A stretch of 15,001 bases of DNA, taken from the IMG/VR virus record IMGVR_UViG_2698536395_000029; one strand, 5' to 3'. This document shows, piece by piece, positions 1,159 through 13,737 of the stretch (its first letter is position 1; every line of letters starts with the position of its first letter). This DNA comes from a virus (lineage: Duplodnaviria > Heunggongvirae > Uroviricota > Caudoviricetes). The position numbers and the translations under genes were made by a program. Under the pieces are notes generated by a model. The model was not told the DNA's origin. It was given only the letters and a program-made list of their open reading frames with translations, and made no database searches.

Positions 1159-2820
1159 TTACACCCCGCTAAATTCTTCCAGTTTCTGGCGGTGGCTGTC
1201 GCTTATATCAAAAGCAAAATCCTCATGCTCTGCCTGGAATGTACCAAACGCCATCAGCGCCGCTACGCTCGGGTCTATCTTGTTCGGTGATTTTTTCTTG
1301 TTCGGCTTGATATTGGCGTTCGCGTCACTCTGCATCACGACGTTACTCATCGACCAGGACAACACCGGATCGCCACGATGCACAATCACCCTGCGGTTAA
1401 CAAAAACTTCGAACGATTTCGCCGCCGGACTGAATCTGAGGTAGGTTTGCGGGAACGGCTCCACCTCAAAACCAGCCCCCTGTAATTGCGTCCTGAGATG
1501 CGTGGCGTTCCACGTATCAAAGCCCACCAGCCTGATATTAAATTTCTCCGCATCCTGCATGATGTCATCTCTGATCCGGTCGTAATCAATGCAGTCACCT
1601 GGCGTTGTGCGTATCCAGCCCGCTTTAGCCCACTGGCGATAGACAGCGCGGTTTTTATTGGCGGGGTTCTGTAGCTGGAACTCCGGCAGATAATGACGGG
1701 AAACCAGCATGATATTTTTACCGACCGGAAAGGCATAGCACACGCTGGAAATATCGCTGGTTGATGATAAGTCCAGCCCCGCGTAACACTCCTGCCCGTG
1801 TAAATCTTCCTCCGTGAACGTTCCGGCACACTCAGCCCATGCGCCGTTACCCATCCACGGGGTAGCCCCCTGGCACCAGATATTAAATCGCTTTGTCATC
1901 ATCTCCACCCACTGCGACGGAATACCCCGCGCTTTCTGGATGGTTGAGGCCAGTTTTTCACGATCGACGGAAACATCAATATTAGGGTTCGCCTTTATCC
2001 ACATCGCCGGATCATCAACCTCGTTTTCGTCGTCCAGCTCGTAAATCAGTACAAAAATTGAATCGTTAACCTCTTCGCCGTCCAGGATCTGGCAGCAATA
2101 ATCATAGTGCTGTTTACAGGCTGAAACGACGTTGCTGCCTGATGTGGTAATGGCAAATAACAGCCCTTCGGGACGTGCGCCCATCCCCAGCTCAAGCGCG
2201 GAATAAACGCCGTTATCGGGGTGCAAGTGGTATTCGTCCACGATGGAAAGGCTTGGGTTTGTTCCCTCGATGGTTGCCGCTTTTGCTGCCAGCGGCTTTA
2301 ACAGGCTGTTGCTTTTCGGGTGTATCACCTTATGCGCCTGAATATTCACCCGCCTGCGTAACGGTCGGGATAAAAGGCACATCTGACGCGCATCATCAAA
2401 GACGATCCGCGCCTGGTCACGGCTCACCGCTGCGGTGTAGATATCCTGCTGACCGTTCTCCATAATCAGAAACCAGTTAGCCAGAATCGCGGCGGTCGTG
2501 GATTTCGCATTTTTGCGCGGCACTTCGATAAAGGCGCTCGTGTATTTGCGCCGTCCGGTGGCCTTAACCTTAAAGCCGAGGATGCACGCAAAGGCGAACT
2601 GCTGCCACGGCTCCAGCTCAATGGGTCTGCCACGCATCGGTCCTTTTACGTGCGGGCACACCCTGGAAAAGGCAATAAACCGCTCCACAACCTCACGATC
2701 GAACGTGTAAAGGGGGCTTTTAAGGTCCGAAAAGTACCGTTTAACGGCCTGTTTCAGCCGTTTACAGGCCGGAATTTTGCCCGTTTTTACGTCTTCTGCG
2801 TACTTATTCCAGGCGGTCAA
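1159..2820 (-). CDS. terL: Terminase large subunit (Terminase_1-like ATPase/nuclease)
   Basis: 553 aa; Walker-A-like PRKNAKST near residue 100; size and position after TerS. Start per ORF track is TTG at 2820, overlapping the TerS stop; next in-frame ATG is ~60 codons in, so the exact start is uncertain. Confidence 0.9.
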   Translation of the reverse strand: MTAWNKYAEDVKTGKIPACKRLKQAVKRYFSDLKSPLYTFDREVVERFIAFSRVCPHVKGPMRGRPIELEPWQQFAFACILGFKVKATGRRKYTSAFIEVPRKNAKSTTAAILANWFLIMENGQQDIYTAAVSRDQARIVFDDARQMCLLSRPLRRRVNIQAHKVIHPKSNSLLKPLAAKAATIEGTNPSLSIVDEYHLHPDNGVYSALELGMGARPEGLLFAITTSGSNVVSACKQHYDYCCQILDGEEVNDSIFVLIYELDDENEVDDPAMWIKANPNIDVSVDREKLASTIQKARGIPSQWVEMMTKRFNIWCQGATPWMGNGAWAECAGTFTEEDLHGQECYAGLDLSSTSDISSVCYAFPVGKNIMLVSRHYLPEFQLQNPANKNRAVYRQWAKAGWIRTTPGDCIDYDRIRDDIMQDAEKFNIRLVGFDTWNATHLRTQLQGAGFEVEPFPQTYLRFSPAAKSFEVFVNRRVIVHRGDPVLSWSMSNVVMQSDANANIKPNKKKSPNKIDPSVAALMAFGTFQAEHEDFAFDISDSHRQKLEEFSGV

Positions 2821-6341: not shown

Positions 6342-7499
6342 TTAATCGTCGTCCTGTGGCAGTTCCAGAATCTTGATCGCGTTCGAATCCACCACGCCAC
6401 CGCCTAAATATTTCTGCGTGAAAATTTTGATGAAGCCCGGCTCTGTGAGGTTGTCCGGTCTGGTGCGAACACCTGTTTCGTGATCAACAATGTAGTAACC
6501 GCGTTTGAAGTCACCCAGGGCAATAACGTTATCAGGCATAAACTCCAGATATTCGACCGGAAGGCCCAGCAACGTATCAGGATCACCCGCCTGTAAACGG
6601 TCGCGCCAGATATAATCACCGTTCGCGTTCTTCACCTTCTGAAGTTTTGCCGCCGTCGTGGAGTTAACCACCCAGACCGCGTTTTTGCGGTATTTTTTAC
6701 GTAATGCAAATTTCAGGTCGATCAGCGGGTCCGCAGATGTCCACGCCAGAGATTCGGAAGGTTTAATTACCTGCAACGTACCAAAATCACGCTCTTTGTC
6801 GTTCTTCTCTGCACGGGGTACGGATAAAAAACCTTTTGCTTTTTTGTCACCGTCGCCCACAACCAGATCGCTTTCTTCGGTTTCCGTGAAGGTGTCGCCA
6901 ATCTCACCCGTCAGCCATGAAAGGATGTCCACATCGGAAAAATCCACGATTTCCTGTGTGGTGCGCGGGTACGCATAGACCGGATACAGCTTAATGCTCA
7001 CCTCGTTAATCTGCGGGGGGCTGGTCTGTTCGCGTGCCTTACCCTCTTCACCGTGGTTAACGGTCGCACCGCCAGCGGAAACAAGCTGCTTAAACTCGTT
7101 GCTGCTGATTTTCTTCACGGTACAGATGCGGCGCATGGTGGATTCATCCGCCAGCATTCGCATGATTTCGGTGTTCAGTTCAGGGATAACGGTATAACCA
7201 CCATCAGCGGGAACGCCTGTACTTAATGCGCGGGTTTCACCTGTCAGAATGTAGTTGCGTAGTTCTGCGGGGTCAGTGGTCTGACTGCTTTTACCTGGCT
7301 TGCTGCGCTCTTCGTCTGCAATGGCTTCAAGGCGGGAAATGTCTTTATCGAGGGATTCAGCTTTAGCGCGTAATTCGTCAAATTTTGCGCCCTCAGCATC
7401 GTTAAGACTGCGGTTTTCTTTTTCCGCGTTCTCCAGCATGTCGCGCATCTGATTTTTAATGGCGGTTTTCTGCTGGCGTAATTCGATTATTCTCGGCAT
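6342..7499 (-). CDS. Major capsid protein (HK97 fold) with N-terminal coiled-coil delta/scaffold-like region
   Basis: Start set at ATG 7499 (MPRIIELRQQ); the track's upstream start at 7547 is GTG. The charged, helical N-terminal ~100 aa followed by a ~280-aa body is the HK97 pattern. Confidence 0.85.
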   Translation of the reverse strand: MPRIIELRQQKTAIKNQMRDMLENAEKENRSLNDAEGAKFDELRAKAESLDKDISRLEAIADEERSKPGKSSQTTDPAELRNYILTGETRALSTGVPADGGYTVIPELNTEIMRMLADESTMRRICTVKKISSNEFKQLVSAGGATVNHGEEGKAREQTSPPQINEVSIKLYPVYAYPRTTQEIVDFSDVDILSWLTGEIGDTFTETEESDLVVGDGDKKAKGFLSVPRAEKNDKERDFGTLQVIKPSESLAWTSADPLIDLKFALRKKYRKNAVWVVNSTTAAKLQKVKNANGDYIWRDRLQAGDPDTLLGLPVEYLEFMPDNVIALGDFKRGYYIVDHETGVRTRPDNLTEPGFIKIFTQKYLGGGVVDSNAIKILELPQDDD

Positions 7500-7506
7500 A
7501 AAAAAA

Positions 7507-7536
7507 GTCCTGGGGTTAAGTAAGGAACTCCAGGAC
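7507..7536 (-). promoter_or_regulatory. Hairpin whose 3' arm contains the capsid Shine-Dalgarno, followed by T7 and the capsid ATG
   Basis: Minus strand reads GTCCTGG-(16 nt)-CCAGGAC-TTTTTTT-ATG; the AGGA of the putative SD sits inside the stem. Confidence 0.45.
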
Positions 7537-7713
7537 GCGGCAAACACTCAACCGTTTTTCATAAGGAAATCAGTAATCGCACCGATCGTTTTCCCGCCTG
7601 GTAATGAATATTGGCGAGCACATTAACAGGCGGGAAAGTGGCCCCAGCGTCCTGGCACCACGGGCGAGAATACTCATGATTCAGTTCGGGTAAAATATGC
7701 CGATCCTGTCAGT

Positions 7714-7739
7714 GAACAACGTGGAACAACCACGAACAA
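7714..7739 (+). promoter_or_regulatory. Phased hexamer array GAACAA-cgtg-GAACAA-ccac-GAACAA (10-bp period) upstream of the head operon
   Basis: Hexamers at 7714-7719, 7724-7729 and 7734-7739, about 215-240 bp upstream of the capsid ATG. Confidence 0.5.
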
Positions 7740-7750
7740 ATAATTTACAA

Positions 7751-7779
7751 AAAATGACAAAAAGCCGGATTGCTCCGGC
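7751..7779 (-). terminator. Rho-independent terminator after the 74-aa orphan gene
   Basis: Minus strand GCCGGA-gcaa-TCCGGC followed by TTTTTGTCATTTT; 12 nt after the stop at 7791. Confidence 0.6.
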
Positions 7780-7790
7780 TGTATGCGTGC

Positions 7791-8015
7791 TCAGTCCCTG
7801 ATCCCTTTCAGAAATTCTATCAATGCATCTATCTGTTCAGGATTTACCGCCAGCATTTCACCGGATAGAGCACATCTAACAAAACCATGCTGATCCTTTT
7901 CAATCAGTGCGCCCGTCTCCAGGAATGCGCGGTAATCATTGATGCTCATCGTCTCCATGTTGTCAGCATGGTATTTATCACGCTGTTTTAATATCTCATC
8001 AAATTTCATCGGCAT
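7791..8015 (-). CDS. Hypothetical protein (74 aa), orphan gene bracketed by two near-identical terminators
   Basis: ATG at 8015 with AGAGGA SD 8 nt upstream (MPMKFDEILKQ...); the track's longer start at 8093 has no SD. Acidic, no family recognised. Confidence 0.55.
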   Translation of the reverse strand: MPMKFDEILKQRDKYHADNMETMSINDYRAFLETGALIEKDQHGFVRCALSGEMLAVNPEQIDALIEFLKGIRD

Positions 8016-8110
8016 TGTTTTTTCCTCTGTTGTGTCTGTTTGTTTCAGATAGTAACTATGCCAGACCGTGACGAAAACCCGGTAATGCGCCATACCGTTT
8101 CAACTGGTGC

Positions 8111-8133
8111 AAAAAAAGCCGGATTTCTCCGGC
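8111..8133 (-). terminator. Rho-independent terminator after the PerC-like gene
   Basis: Minus strand GCCGGA-gaaa-TCCGGC followed by TTTTTTT; nearly identical to the hairpin at 7764-7779. Confidence 0.65.
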
Positions 8134-8140
8134 TGTGTGA

Positions 8141-8413
8141 TTAGCTGTCCTGGTAATTGCGCCATATTTCATCACCAGCACCATCTATCCCCATTTCGGC
8201 ATAAGTGCGATCGACTGCCTTTTTCAGGTCTCCGTAATTATCCGGTGGCTCCGGTGGCCTCTGTGCCTTCCTGCAACATTCCAGCCGTCGCATCGTAACC
8301 TGATGCCGTTCCTTGTCTGTCTCCACCAGCAGCATGACTTCACCCCATCGCGCCGCCGCCCTCCGGTAAAAGCCTTTCGCCTCGAGTTCTTCCGCTATGC
8401 GGTCATGTACCAT
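8141..8413 (-). CDS. PerC-family-like transcriptional regulator (90 aa)
   Basis: Start taken at ATG 8413 (MVHDRIAEEL) with GAGGGGG SD. The motif AEELEAKGFYRRAAARWGEV...MRRLEC resembles the PerC/Pch signature (A..LE..G.WRRAA..W). From memory. Confidence 0.5.
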   Translation of the reverse strand: MVHDRIAEELEAKGFYRRAAARWGEVMLLVETDKERHQVTMRRLECCRKAQRPPEPPDNYGDLKKAVDRTYAEMGIDGAGDEIWRNYQDS

Positions 8414-8423
8414 CGCCACCCCC

Positions 8424-8834
8424 TCAGAACGGAATACCGTCACCGTAAGGGTCATCGCCTCCCGCTGGTGGCTGATTACCCTGTGTGCCTGTGGTTTTGC
8501 GTCTGTTCCCGCCAGGAAGTGCCGCACGGGCACTGATTACGCTGTCTGCAATAACCTGATAACCCTGCCGCGTTTCCCCATTCTGTCCGGTCCACTGGCT
8601 GACCTGCATCGTGCCGGATACGCTGGCAACGTCGCCTTTTTGATGTTTAGCCAGGAAGTCGGCCTGCTTACCAAATGCGATGACCGATAGCCATAACGTC
8701 GCCTGCCCATCCTGCGCCTGACTACATGGCAGCGATACCGCCATACGCGCCAGCGTCATCGGTGTACCCTTGCTGGTCTGTTTTACCTGCGGGTCGTCCA
8801 CCAGCCGCCCGTAAGCTGCTATCTGTGCTGTCAT
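8424..8834 (-). CDS. ssb: Single-stranded DNA-binding protein
   Basis: 136 aa; the OB-fold core aligns with E. coli SSB landmarks (LWLSVIAFGKQADFLAKHQKGD vs [22 protein letters not shown]); Gly/Pro/Gln-rich linker; acidic tail DDPYGDGIPF like the SSB DDDIPF tip. Confidence 0.8.
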   Translation of the reverse strand: MTAQIAAYGRLVDDPQVKQTSKGTPMTLARMAVSLPCSQAQDGQATLWLSVIAFGKQADFLAKHQKGDVASVSGTMQVSQWTGQNGETRQGYQVIADSVISARAALPGGNRRKTTGTQGNQPPAGGDDPYGDGIPF

Positions 8835-9109
8835 GATTCCACCTCTCCGGTTTTAACGTTGATGGTTGTTACCTGTTCCGCTTCGGCAATCTCCCGCTCT
8901 GTCAGCGTGGCAAAATTTGCCGCCGTCGTGGTCATGAATGCGCTTATCAGTTCGGGATGTGCTTTCGCGTATCCTTCCCCCGCGTGGCGGTCTATCGTTC
9001 TGATTGCCACCTTTAAAGCGTGCTCTGTCATGTCTAACGCGCGATATTTCGGTTCTGTTCTGTCTCTGCGTTTTTTGAGTGATTTATTAAATTTCCCTGA
9101 AGTGTGCAT
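8831..9109 (-). CDS. Hypothetical protein (92 aa), first gene after the origin
   Basis: ATG at 9109; stop overlaps the SSB start (ATGA). No family recognised. Confidence 0.5.
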   Translation of the reverse strand: MHTSGKFNKSLKKRRDRTEPKYRALDMTEHALKVAIRTIDRHAGEGYAKAHPELISAFMTTTAANFATLTEREIAEAEQVTTINVKTGEVES

Positions 9110-9158
9110 ATTTATTTTTACCCCCTCGTTTAAAAAGTTTTGAGTTGTGCCTCCCCTT

Positions 9159-9382
9159 GTCTACCTTATCTACCTTAGTGGCCCTCATACCAGTAATGGC
9201 GCGGCTTTCAGCTGGGTAGAGTGCTTTTATCCACTATCTACCCCGTGTCTACCTCCCTGTCTGATTCAGGTAAAATCAGGTAGAGAGGGTAGATAGTGGG
9301 TAGACAGTAAAAAAAGGCTATCTACCTAACTTAATGCACTGAATTAAATGTATTTTTCTTTACTCAGGTAGACAGGGTAGAC
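9159..9382. repeat. Iteron-type replication origin
   Basis: At least 11 copies of the 7-mer GGTAGA[C/T/G] or its complement in both orientations (9159, 9168, 9215, 9236, 9247, 9279, 9288, 9299, 9320, 9367, 9376), often at 9-11 bp spacing, flanking an AT-rich stretch at 9330-9366. Lies directly downstream of the primase stop. Confidence 0.75.
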
Positions 9383-9397
9383 AGCAATTACAAAAAA

Positions 9398-11152
9398 TTA
9401 TAAAAACGCGTCGCACTCGTCTGTTGTTATTGCGTTAGTCTGCGTTACTCCCTTAACTTTCCGCGTAATATATTCATGTCCGTAAACTTTCGCGGCTGGC
9501 TTCATAGCCTTGCCAAAGTCATTTACGTTTAGCGGTTTGCTCCTGCCTGCGTACGCCATAAACGCCAGATAGACGCGGTAAAGGCTGTTTCTGGTCGTGT
9601 ACTTCACTGAATCGCCACCGCCGCCCATCATCAGGCCGCGTGCTTCCTCCAGAAAATTCAGGAACTGGCAAAACTCAATAACCGGATCCGTCTGTTGCTT
9701 TATTGCCAGAGCTTCATCACCGTCACGCTGTTCCAGTAGTAAAGCCCGTGCCTTCTCAGGGTCGGTAAAGTTCGCCAGCAATCGGCGGATAATGACAGGG
9801 ATTTCAGCCGCGATCTTTTCCGGTAGCTCCCTGTCTTTTTCGGCCTCACTGACGATATTGTCGAAACGGAAAATCACGCGACGACGTGCCACACCTCCGG
9901 CCCGTTCGGTGAATATCATCGGGTTATTGTTGGTCGCCAGCACCACCGCCCTGATTACAGCCGTGAAACGCTTTTCGTATTTCGGGTTAATTTCCACGGG
10001 GTCACCGCCCGTGATTTTCTTGATGCCCGTTCCTTCGCCTGTATATTTCGGCTGGTCAGCCAGGACGATAAGACGACTCCCGACAACCTGCGCACGTCCA
10101 CCAGCATCATCAAGCGATGTCATTTCAGCGCTTACCGTGTTCTGTTTCCCTGCCAGAAGGCTGGCTATGTGCGTGAATGTACTTTTACCGCTCCCGCCGT
10201 CTCCGGTGGCCTCAATAAACATCTGCCAGTCGTACCGGTTCGCCATAATCATGTACAGCGCGGCACATATACGCATCATCTTGCGCGGGTCTTTTCCGGC
10301 TGCGTGCTCAAGCCATTTATGAAAGTTTGGCGCGTTATCGCGGATGTTCTCCCCTGGTGCTGGTGGCGTGTACTCAATGCCGTTGTGCGTGGTGATCCAG
10401 TTCTCCGGCGTGTGCGGGGAAAATTCCCCCGTTTTCAGGTCAAGCGCACCATTGGCGAACGGCAGCAAATCGCCGGACGGCTCGCCCATTGGTTCGGCAA
10501 TAACTTTTAACGCTTCCACGGCGTTATTGATTACGCGCTTGCTGAAAGTGGCCCTGTGCTCTGAATAGATCGCCACCATTTCGCGGCTAAGTTCCATTGT
10601 GCTGACCGGACACCATACCCCGCCGCGCCATACGTGAACGATTTCACTTTCAGGATGTACGCAAACGCCATCAAAGCGATCGGCAAGCAGCTGCGCGCGC
10701 TCACTGTCCGCCATCTGCGAAAGTTGCGCCTTTTGCTTTACCGGAAGCTCAATGACCAGACCATCAGAAAGATTCTGGCGCTCACGAGCCAGATATTCGC
10801 GCCAGTTCTCCACCTTCTGACCGTGCATACCATCAGGGTAAAAATTTGCATCCTGTACGCCTGCCGCCGCCAGCTTCTGACCAATCGCCTTTATCATTAC
10901 TGGCGCAAGATATCCGGCCCTGAATATGCGCACGGATTTTCTGCCTTCCGGCACAATTTGCAGCTTATCCAGTTCGGATAACTGCTGCTCCCCAAGCCAC
11001 ACAGGAGGCTCATTATCTCCGGCCATACGCGCGTCATGTTCCTGCCATTGTTTTGCGTGTGACCAGGCATCACTACCCGCAAAAATAATGACTTCTGTTT
11101 CTTTGTGTTTTATGCCGCGTGACTGCTGTTTTACGTTCGGTGCCAGTTTCAT
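9398..11152 (-). CDS. Primase/helicase replication protein (P4-alpha-like; D5-type NTPase C-terminal domain)
   Basis: 584 aa; Walker A GDGGSGKST at ~residue 318 with the surrounding D5/P4-family helicase context; N-terminal primase-like region; iteron origin immediately downstream. Confidence 0.85.
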   Translation of the reverse strand: MKLAPNVKQQSRGIKHKETEVIIFAGSDAWSHAKQWQEHDARMAGDNEPPVWLGEQQLSELDKLQIVPEGRKSVRIFRAGYLAPVMIKAIGQKLAAAGVQDANFYPDGMHGQKVENWREYLARERQNLSDGLVIELPVKQKAQLSQMADSERAQLLADRFDGVCVHPESEIVHVWRGGVWCPVSTMELSREMVAIYSEHRATFSKRVINNAVEALKVIAEPMGEPSGDLLPFANGALDLKTGEFSPHTPENWITTHNGIEYTPPAPGENIRDNAPNFHKWLEHAAGKDPRKMMRICAALYMIMANRYDWQMFIEATGDGGSGKSTFTHIASLLAGKQNTVSAEMTSLDDAGGRAQVVGSRLIVLADQPKYTGEGTGIKKITGGDPVEINPKYEKRFTAVIRAVVLATNNNPMIFTERAGGVARRRVIFRFDNIVSEAEKDRELPEKIAAEIPVIIRRLLANFTDPEKARALLLEQRDGDEALAIKQQTDPVIEFCQFLNFLEEARGLMMGGGGDSVKYTTRNSLYRVYLAFMAYAGRSKPLNVNDFGKAMKPAAKVYGHEYITRKVKGVTQTNAITTDECDAFL

Positions 11153-11448
11153 TTTTTACCCCTGAATACGTTAAGCATCTTTTTTATTTCCTGAATATTG
11201 GCGCGTGCTTTCTTCCTGCTGGTTGGTTTACTGCGGGGCGCTGCCTGTACCAGAGAAAAATCACGCCGAAACTGATAAACAGGCATCACGCAATCATATT
11301 CGTAGCCTTCACGGCGGTAGGTTACGCGCCGTTCTTCCACGCCCTTAATCATTACCGTGCCGCCGTACTGGTCGCGGTAAATATCACCGCGCGTAAATTT
11401 AGGGTGAGTGTTGCCACTGGCAGTTAAGCCAGAATATTTAAGTTTCAT
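11149..11448 (-). CDS. Hypothetical basic protein (99 aa)
   Basis: ATG at 11448 with GGAG SD; stop overlaps the primase ATG (ATGA). Confidence 0.55.
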   Translation of the reverse strand: MKLKYSGLTASGNTHPKFTRGDIYRDQYGGTVMIKGVEERRVTYRREGYEYDCVMPVYQFRRDFSLVQAAPRSKPTSRKKARANIQEIKKMLNVFRGKK

Positions 11449-13220: not shown

Positions 13221-13409
13221 TTAATGAACTGCCTTGCAGCTATCCTTCCAGGCCAGAACCTCGGATAAAGACCAGCCAACGGAACGACCGCCAAGTTTAC
13301 GACGTGATGGGAATTGTCCGGCCTTTTCCAGGCGGTAGCGGCATGAGCGGCTAAGGCCTGTTAGCTTTTCGCATTCTTTTTCACGTATAAACCGATCAGT
13401 GCTTAACAC
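13221..13409 (-). CDS. alpA: AlpA-family transcriptional regulator / excisionase-like HTH protein
   Basis: 62 aa; LTGLSRSCRYRLEKAGQFPSRRKLGGRSVGWSLSEVLAW matches the AlpA signature (TGLSRST.YR....G.FP.P.KLG.R.V.W...EV..W). Start is GTG at 13409 with AAGGGGG SD. Confidence 0.85.
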   Translation of the reverse strand: MLSTDRFIREKECEKLTGLSRSCRYRLEKAGQFPSRRKLGGRSVGWSLSEVLAWKDSCKAVH

Positions 13410-13600: not shown

Positions 13601-13692
13601 CTCGCCATTTAAAGAGTGATTCGCTAGTGTATAAAAAACCAGTAACACATTAAAAATCAGCCACTTATAAATCCGTACACTTTTTCGCCTCT

Positions 13693-13737
13693 TGTTCGTA
13701 GTTGTTCCGCATTGTTGCTCATTGTTGCATGTTGTAT
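13693..13737 (-). promoter_or_regulatory. Array of four to five TTGTT[C/G] hexamers at exact 10-bp phasing (minus strand GAACAA/CAACAA)
   Basis: Hexamers at 13693, 13703, 13713, 13723 and a degenerate one at 13732; about 285-330 bp upstream of alpA and 50-90 bp downstream of the int stop. Confidence 0.55.

Follow-up and report, generated by a model that had tools for sequence, protein, structure and literature searches.

A pchE-type PerC-family gene on a capsid-forming phage satellite, a candidate host-directed accessory regulator

Introduction

A 15,001-nucleotide stretch of viral DNA (IMG/VR record IMGVR_UViG_2698536395_000029; hereafter the window) carries on its minus strand, upstream of a set of phage head genes, a short reading frame that had been predicted from its letters to encode a PerC-like regulator borne on a helper-dependent phage satellite. 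The presence of such a gene on such an element raises the question of whom its product serves. The original prediction offered two answers, namely that PerC-type proteins are activators of virulence loci, so that a copy on a satellite would let satellite induction feed into host gene regulation, or else that the protein is the activator of the head operon just downstream. We addressed the question through the family and allele of the gene, the element that carries it, its transcription unit, its structural model, its occurrence among related satellites and the leader of the head operon.

Results and Discussion

Identity and reading frame of the perC gene

The open reading frame had been placed exactly: it runs on the minus strand from an ATG at 8413 to a TAA at 8143-8141 and encodes 90 aa (Table 1). 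The proposed profile search gave a match to Pfam PerC (PF06069) with an E value of 2.5e-44 and 149.9 bits, compared with a gathering cut-off of 22.6 bits, in which residues 1-89 of the protein aligned with positions 1-89 of the 90 in the profile, and PHROGs phrog_994 was matched with an E value of 1.4e-46. Membership of the protein in the PerC family is therefore certain and far beyond chance, and the outcome that would have refuted the prediction, a search without significant PerC similarity, did not occur. In the RefSeq record that is 99.987% identical to the window, the same 273-bp CDS is annotated as a 'PerC family transcriptional regulator'. The ATG follows a Shine-Dalgarno-like GAGGGGG at a distance of 5 nt and the stop codon of ssb (TGA, 8426-8424) at 10 nt. 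A longer, 130-aa reading from a GTG at 8533 would add 40 residues outside the Pfam match; this frame was rejected because the match starts at the internal ATG and because the extension overlaps ssb in another frame.

The window protein also has the general makeup of the family, whose members are small (about 80-105 aa) helical proteins with a conserved N-terminal core. Residues G14, Y16, R17, R18, A19, A21, R22 and W23 were invariant in two PerC alignments (A2 and A3), and the core E-x-x-G-x-Y-R-R-A-x-x-R-W was kept in most of the 12 distant PerC representatives inspected, with Y16 replaced by W or D in 3 of them. RefSeq additionally places a 42-aa hypothetical protein, called 'trigger factor' in other records, at 8056-8184 (minus strand) across the 3' end of perC and its terminator; this call is probably spurious.

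Table 1. Features of the window that bear on the perC gene and on the head operon (positions in the 15,001-nt stretch)
Feature	Position	Strand	Description	Evidence
HK97-type major capsid gene	6342..7499	-	first gene of head/packaging operon; 99% identical to Sakai ECs_1590	Pfam Phage_capsid, E 2.6e-61
Leader hairpin	7500..7536	-	hairpin and U7 before the capsid AUG, burying AGGA	RNA fold
Head-operon control region	7714..7752	-	box TTTTGTAAATTATTTG, then three 10-bp-phased TGTTC repeats	leader alignments
Second intrinsic terminator	7758..7780	-	near copy of the first, after orf74	terminator scan
orf74 (phrog_1957)	7791..8015	-	small cassette between perC and head operon; 100% identical to Sakai ECs_1589	PHROGs, E 1.9e-41
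First intrinsic terminator	8110..8134	-	after perC; AGCCGGAGAAATCCGGCT, then U7	terminator scan
perC/pchE-type CDS	8141..8413	-	90 aa, stop codon included	ORF, Pfam, RefSeq
Shine-Dalgarno-like element	8417..8425	-	GAGGGGGTG before the perC ATG	read from sequence
ssb	8424..8834	-	directly upstream of perC in one unit; 99% identical to Sakai ECs_1587	Pfam SSB, E 4.2e-17
orf92 (phrog_1231)	8831..9109	-	first gene of orf-ssb-perC unit; 89% identical to Sakai ECs_1586	PHROGs, E 2.9e-51
alpA	13221..13409	-	master activator of the satellite	Pfam Phage_AlpA, E 5e-18
Phased repeats	13691..13735	+	five 10-bp-phased TTGTT(C/G) repeats, int-alpA intergenic region	

The satellite element

Over 15 kb the window differs by 1 mismatch and 1 indel (99.987% identity) from strain 20.1, a bovine E. 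coli from Belgium, in which the element interrupts tqsA (RefSeq places it between two tqsA fragments). Pfam recognized, all on the minus strand, a tyrosine integrase with an arm-binding domain, AlpA, a DUF4222 protein of the RgdR type and a D5-type primase, together with an HK97-type capsid protein, prohead protease, portal, HNH, TerS and TerL; no tail or lysis genes were annotated by RefSeq within the element. Capsid-forming PICIs (cf-PICIs) of the EcCIEDL933 type are recognized by int and alpA at one end, pri-rep, an HK97 capsid, protease, portal, head-tail connectors, HNH, terS and terL, all within about 15 kb that lack tail and lysis genes. The whole set of marker proteins was found by Pfam and RefSeq annotation, and int, AlpA and the entire head/packaging module showed 91-100% protein identity to Sakai Sp7. 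Judged by its gene content, the element is a cf-PICI of the EcCIEDL933/CP-933C/Sp7/OI-51 type, and carriage of the gene on a helper-dependent phage satellite was thus confirmed. Sp7 is O-island 51/CP-933C (PMC3378721), and we take Sp7/OI-51, by strain, size and gene content, to be the prototype cf-PICI EcCIEDL933. Helper-phage induction via AlpA and transfer in satellite capsids with helper tails (bioRxiv 10.1101/2022.09.08.507074) were demonstrated for EcCIEDL933 only.

The primase/replication module differs from that of Sakai Sp7, the primases being similar over their first 163 residues only. At 9110-9397 lies a PICI replication origin in which GTCTACC/GGTAGA iterons flank an AT-rich stretch; both this origin and the 584-aa primase belong to the EcCICFT073 type, whereas the head module belongs to the EcCIEDL933 type, which makes the element a mosaic. 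In O157 (PA20), the mapped transcription start of pchE falls in an ori region of a type other than that of the window. A 99-aa DUF4222 protein with an R-G-D motif (11149-11448, minus strand) is 92% identical to RgdR (ECs1581), which is encoded on OI-51 and has been published as activating LEE and repressing motility, and with this RgdR-like protein besides PerC the satellite would carry two small host-directed regulators. The terL ORF (1159-2820, minus strand) is intact in the window, with 553 codons and a TTG start as in Sakai, and is marked as frameshifted by RefSeq in the strain 20.1 record. An Rfam scan of the whole window returned no family.

Relationship to pchE and distribution of the gene

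The window protein and Sakai PchE (ECs_1588, E. coli O157:H7) are of equal length (90 aa) and identical at 83 of 90 residues (92%). Residues 1-46 are the same in both, all 7 substitutions lie at residues 47-88 in the C-terminal half, and the 15 nucleotide changes relative to Sakai pchE are likewise confined to the 3' half of the gene. Because these changes are limited to the 3' half whereas the flanks checked are 98.5-100% identical to Sakai (ssb DNA, 98.5%; orf74 protein, 100%; capsid protein, 99%), the window perC resembles a recombinant allele and looks like the product of allelic recombination. The order orf, ssb, pchE, terminator, orf74, terminator, capsid is common to the window and Sakai. 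High identity, equal length and a neighbourhood conserved on an OI-51-type element are what orthology with PchE calls for, and on this comparison it is nearly certain that the window carries an allele of pchE, the E. coli PerC homologue known as 'group 3'. Column entropy over 24 distinct PerC sequences from related loci was 0.25 bits for residues 1-50 and 0.92 bits for residues 51-90; the protein thus consists of a conserved core and a variable tail.

Of 5426 complete E. coli genomes, 964 contained pchE-like DNA, and 1119 of its 1120 places were chromosomal. All of the pchE-like records listed were annotated as PerC family regulators, and every sampled context was a PICI backbone. Sequenced phages yielded 7 weak PerC hits in 50,697 records. 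The earlier description of such genes as typically prophage-borne therefore does not apply to the PchE clade. Plasmids carried the PerC family in 145 records, nearly all of them below 60% identity. Five loci, obtained by a pattern scan of genome contigs with a PerC alignment, were used for context and not for statistics. Among the distant PerC members sampled, the neighbourhoods included a lambdoid lysis region and a satellite backbone; one member lay beside an EAL protein, an EcpR-like regulator and an autotransporter, and another beside an invasin/intimin-like adhesin. The recurrence of surface-structure neighbours around these distant members would fit a host-directed regulator.

The association of pchE with a cf-PICI is already known and ordinary, having been in print since 2012, when PchE was placed among the genes of OI-51 (PMC3378721) and pchE was mapped to OI-51/CP-933C/Sp7 (PMC3378721). 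In 2018 PerC alleles were recorded on PICIs of Gram-negative bacteria (PMC6092414), and PerC-family regulators are common in Gram-negative PICIs, EcCIEDL933 and EcCICFT073 both encoding PerC-like genes (PMC11773190).

Transcription unit and neighbouring genes

The gap between ssb and perC is only 10 nt, which points to co-transcription of the two genes, and in O157 strain PA20 a polycistronic mRNA ECs1586-ECs1587-pchE has been described whose 5' end lies 10 nt upstream of ECs1586 (PMC7369912). perC comes last in an orf-ssb-perC unit with which the replication module ends, and the unit is closed by an intrinsic terminator (RNA fold of -12.8 kcal/mol, z = -3.86, with 0 of 200 shuffles as good). 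The terminator that follows orf74 folds at -14.4 kcal/mol (z = -3.2), and in EcCICFT073 the same hairpin comes directly after perC. Bracketed in the window by two nearly identical terminators, orf74 resembles an inserted cassette.

For comparison we surveyed 58 IMG/VR loci with a related capsid, 37 of which were cf-PICIs of the E. coli type (capsid protein 98-100% identical) with enough upstream sequence; a further group consisted of seven divergent cf-PICIs (capsid 66-70% identical), in which PerC was sought by HMM without filters. orf74 was present in 17 of the 37 E. coli-type elements, and a homologue 41-45% identical to it lay upstream of the capsid gene in 6 of the 7 divergent ones, five of these lacking PerC. 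orf74 thus tracks the head module better than PerC does.

Function of PchE and the proposed mechanism

Over-expression of PchE represses csgD, csgA, biofilm formation and HEp-2 adhesion, and deletion of pchE raises Congo-red binding slightly, with only a slight change in curli (PMC6265319). PchE also raises fliC, flhDC and motility and lowers stpA expression (PMC7369912), while hns transcription is unaffected by pchE (PMC7369912). The phenotypes in this work, on curli in 2018 and on flagella in 2020 (PMC6265319, PMC7369912), stem mostly from plasmid over-expression. These effects and the polycistronic mRNA are known from the literature on a protein that is 92% identical to the one in the window, whereas the family identity, the pchE allele, the synteny and the terminators were obtained here.

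Two parts of the original prediction fared less well against this literature. Its picture of PerC-type proteins as activators of virulence loci does not carry over to the PchE group, which is reported not to switch on LEE1 (Porter 2005, cited in PMC11773190 and PMC6265319), and which represses csgD/curli and raises flagellar expression. The PerC-like proteins of EcCIEDL933 and EcCICFT073 are likewise reported to have left LEE1-lacZ unaffected (Porter 2005, cited in PMC11773190; also PMC6265319). ler was up more than 2-fold when PchE was over-expressed (PMC7369912). The idea that satellite induction would feed into host regulation met with the opposite behaviour in O157 PA20, where pchE is expressed at a basal level and drops about threefold on SOS induction (PMC7369912); PA20 may, however, lack a helper phage. 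Overall, the earlier interpretation is partly supported.

A mechanism is suggested by the relative PchA, for which activation of LEE1 depends wholly on silencing by H-NS/StpA/Hha/YdgT (PMC4764244) and which displaces H-NS at LEE1, with H-NS binding reduced both in vivo and in vitro (PMC4764244); this displacement was observed with PchA and not with PchE. By analogy, the window PerC would act in trans on chromosomal surface-structure promoters, turning csgD and curli down and flhDC and fliC up, and it would probably do so by remodelling H-NS-type nucleoprotein complexes in the manner shown for PchA. The protein would then be a regulator directed at the host that rides on a satellite backbone. 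We regard it as reasonably probable that the window gene is in this sense a pchE allele encoding a host-directed accessory regulator of surface-structure genes, working via H-NS-type nucleoprotein complexes.

Structural model and the relation to ANR proteins

The AF2 model of PerC had a mean pLDDT of 83.7, reaching about 95 in residues 1-50 and falling off in the C-terminal part, and placed helices at residues 5-13, 16-27 and 33-50. The protein is accordingly predicted to be all-helical, of about 10 kDa, with a three-helix TPR-like N-terminal core and a variable C-terminal tail. No DNA-binding fold was recognizable in it, and a sequence search found no relative in the PDB. As modelled, the fold would be more in keeping with a factor that contacts proteins or remodels the nucleoid than with a classical operator-binding activator.

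The ANR profile (NCBIfam NF033650, ANR_neg_reg) matched the window PerC with 17.7 bits and an E value of 0.0023, below the curated cut-off of 32 bits by which membership is defined. The same profile was matched weakly over residues 7-52 by 15 of 16 PerC alleles, with a best E value of 5.7e-4 and every score below the cut-off, and PerC and ANR may be remotely related rather than members of one family. PerC could, on this basis, be an ANR-like anti-activator that binds AraC-type activators and/or H-NS rather than DNA and is mainly a silencer. The recurrent matches in residues 7-52 and a TPR-like core that lacks a DNA-binding fold are consistent with such a role, and so are the silencing of LEE1 by EcCIMP1_025, itself suggested to be ANR-like (PMC11773190), and the repression of csgD, eae and lpfA1 by PchE (PMC6265319, PMC7369912). 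Yet PchE strongly raises flagellar genes, DNA binding has been reported for PchA by ChIP-chip and in vitro (PMC4764244), no partner protein is known for PerC, and the ANR matches themselves all remain under the curated cut-off (17.7 versus 32 bits for the window). We therefore think it unlikely that PerC works as an anti-activator of this kind.

Position of perC on the satellite backbone

In PICIs with HK97 heads perC follows pri-(orf)-ssb-(ProQ), and the same series ending in perC was found in front of lambda-like capsid and decoration genes (EcCICFT073 and locus L010), in front of three large unknown genes (L011), in front of terS-type modules that carry a second perC (L012 and L013) and at the island end in E. 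albertii (L003); a satellite from a metagenome showed this backbone order as well. The second PerC-family gene, at 14116-14418 in L012 and 13548-13850 in L013, is more distant (100 aa) and lies near the far end of the element, besides the backbone copy. To judge from these arrangements, perC belongs to the PICI replication backbone, whatever module is downstream.

Such a place could mean that the ancestral job of PerC lies in satellite biology and that its effects on virulence genes are side effects or a later co-option. PerC would in that case be a backbone anti-silencer, made together with SSB (and with ProQ/FinO in some elements), that frees H-NS-bound promoters of the satellite or of its helper; if so, the freeing would occur during establishment or induction and could include the module downstream of perC. 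We consider this history rather improbable. PerC might serve the satellite-helper relationship by de-silencing incoming satellite DNA or by modulating helper genes, for example tail genes. Two observations speak for such a service: in satellites of E. coli, E. albertii, Pantoea, Erwinia and Lonsdalea, most of which are genera that lack LEE, perC has a fixed backbone position beside ssb and ProQ/FinO, and the family is small and confined (239 cluster representatives with E <= 1e-3 in 1.84 billion proteins). Many PICIs, however, do without PerC (of 16 E. cloacae satellites only 1 has it; PMC13612085), and it is also missing from divergent cf-PICIs, so that it behaves as an accessory gene, and the proposal is accordingly very doubtful.

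Control of the head operon

The perC gene directly precedes the head operon in each of the 37 E. coli-type cf-PICIs, and in EcCICFT073-type PICIs it lies upstream of a capsid-like module. This placement agrees with the second answer of the original prediction, under which PerC would be a late activator: AlpA would turn on the early/replication operon including perC, and PerC would in turn activate or de-silence a capsid/packaging promoter in 7500-7790. The region first named for that promoter, 7548-7790, was too short at one end, since the capsid gene starts at ATG 7499 and the intergenic region therefore spans 7500-7790. The two intrinsic terminators isolate the head operon, and a scan of the minus strand from 7300 to 9500 found no sigma-70 consensus promoter, an absence that an activator-dependent promoter would fit. 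Taken with the leader hairpin, these terminators and the lack of a sigma-70 promoter on the minus strand imply that the head operon needs an activated promoter of its own, and members of the PerC family are known as activators or anti-silencers (PMC4764244).

The comparison among satellites argues against PerC as that activator. Six of the seven divergent cf-PICIs, whose head operons are homologous, had no PerC ORF, and the leader box was the same in the three that were aligned. perC also precedes unrelated modules or the island end, and it is truncated in the cf-PICI L029. PerC alleles that range from 49 to 100% identity to that of the window, including an 82-aa form, stand upstream of a virtually invariant head leader, so that PerC and the leader show no sign of co-evolution. 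Furthermore, uninduced cells already express pchE at a basal level (PMC7369912), so that the head operon would be constitutive if PerC were sufficient. The head leader, finally, bears repeats of the AlpA/att type. PerC is thus disfavoured as head-operon activator: on these comparisons it is probably not dedicated to that operon, the late-activator scheme is highly improbable, and the operon more likely answers to AlpA.

The box TTTTGTAAATTATTTG, at 7737-7752 on the minus strand, occurs once in the window and was the sole block conserved across six aligned cf-PICI leaders; these include three from elements without PerC (L054, L061 and L062), and the form of the box among them is TTTTGTAAATTAT. 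The 10-bp-phased TGTTC repeat is present in 3 copies in the head leader (7714-7740), and a variant pair of phased repeats at 251-267 adjoins the left att end. Sakai, CFT073 and two other PICIs have repeats in the alpA promoter region as well as at each att arm, and an extra copy before the capsid gene was found in every E. coli-type cf-PICI examined and in no non-capsid-forming PICI. None of 300 shuffles yielded two strict phased-repeat chains. When AlpA alleles were compared with the head-leader repeats for co-variation, loci with a 64%-identical AlpA had the same head-leader repeats, and their own alpA regions have a related GTTCG-type phased repeat. The role of AlpA as master activator is established (PMC6092414; bioRxiv 10.1101/2022.09.08.507074); AlpA activates its own promoter and the downstream genes of EcCICFT073 (PMC6092414), and over-expression of alpA alone was used to make EcCIEDL933 capsids (bioRxiv 10.1101/2025.02.11.637232). 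Because of the shared phased repeats, this autoactivation and the production of capsids by alpA over-expression alone, AlpA, an excisionase-type winged-helix protein, would appear to drive the head operon directly. This control and the H-NS mechanism of PerC are the two steps that we infer. With repeats shared by the head leader and the AlpA-controlled alpA promoter region, and with a head operon that in other genera occurs without PerC, a testable model of the cf-PICI capsid switch is at hand.

Two further structures were seen in the leader. The hairpin at 7500-7536 folds at -14.1 kcal/mol (z = -3.65, with 0 of 200 shuffles as good), ends one base before the capsid AUG and is absent from divergent cf-PICIs; as folded, it looks like a terminator or a translational attenuator. 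An 11-bp perfect inverted repeat at 7575-7650 (minus strand), TTTCCCGCCTG ... CAGGCGGGAAA, forms a stem-loop of -28.9 kcal/mol, which is kept with a shorter loop in locus L060. An AT-rich, H-NS-prone composition was not evident at the head promoter (GC about 0.46-0.48), the only strongly AT-rich stretch being the int-alpA region (GC 0.34-0.36). No promoter was conserved between the intergenic regions of the window and EcCICFT073, which are not homologous apart from the shared terminator.

Comparison with known systems

The window PerC, read as a pchE allele and a probable host-directed accessory regulator, can be set beside five known systems. Like the late activators Delta/Ogr of satellite P4 and helper P2, it is a small satellite-encoded regulator encoded before morphogenesis-related genes, a functional likeness that underlies the head-activator reading. 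Ogr/Delta are zinc-finger proteins, and there is no relation to PerC in sequence or fold; the PerC searches returned no such family, and the comparative data do not tie PerC to the head operon. With the ANR family (Aar-type AraC negative regulators) PerC shares a similar size, a weak profile likeness in the N-terminal helices and a predicted helical module of a protein-binding-like kind, but it has an extra C-terminal part of about 40 residues and no known AraC-type partner.

EPEC PerC, from the pEAF plasmid, and EHEC PchA/B/C, from lambdoid prophages, belong to the same Pfam family as the window protein and share its N-terminal G-x-Y-R-R-A-x-x-R-W core; all are small proteins encoded on horizontally acquired DNA that alter surface or virulence transcription. 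They differ in location, PerC and PchA-C lying on a plasmid or in a prophage late region and the window PerC on a satellite backbone, with plasmid homologues less than 60% identical, and in their targets, since PerC and PchA-C activate LEE1/ler whereas PchE is reported not to (cited in PMC11773190, PMC6265319). Closer in setting is EcCIMP1_025, a PerC-family gene on an E. coli PICI that is considered an accessory regulator of host virulence genes (PMC11773190). Its product is reported to share about 40% identity with the PerC-like proteins that EcCIEDL933 and EcCICFT073 encode; it silences LEE1 in C. rodentium, and its gene lies on a classical, non-capsid-forming PICI.

The nearest system is PchE of O157:H7 on Sp7/CP-933C/O-island 51, which the window matches in the orf-ssb-pchE operon, the terminator, orf74 and the HK97 head operon. 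The two elements differ in the primase/ori module, which is of the CFT073 type in the window, and in the site, tqsA as opposed to the roxA-phoQ interval. The window gene is thus a re-identification of pchE, a gene automatically annotated in hundreds of genomes.
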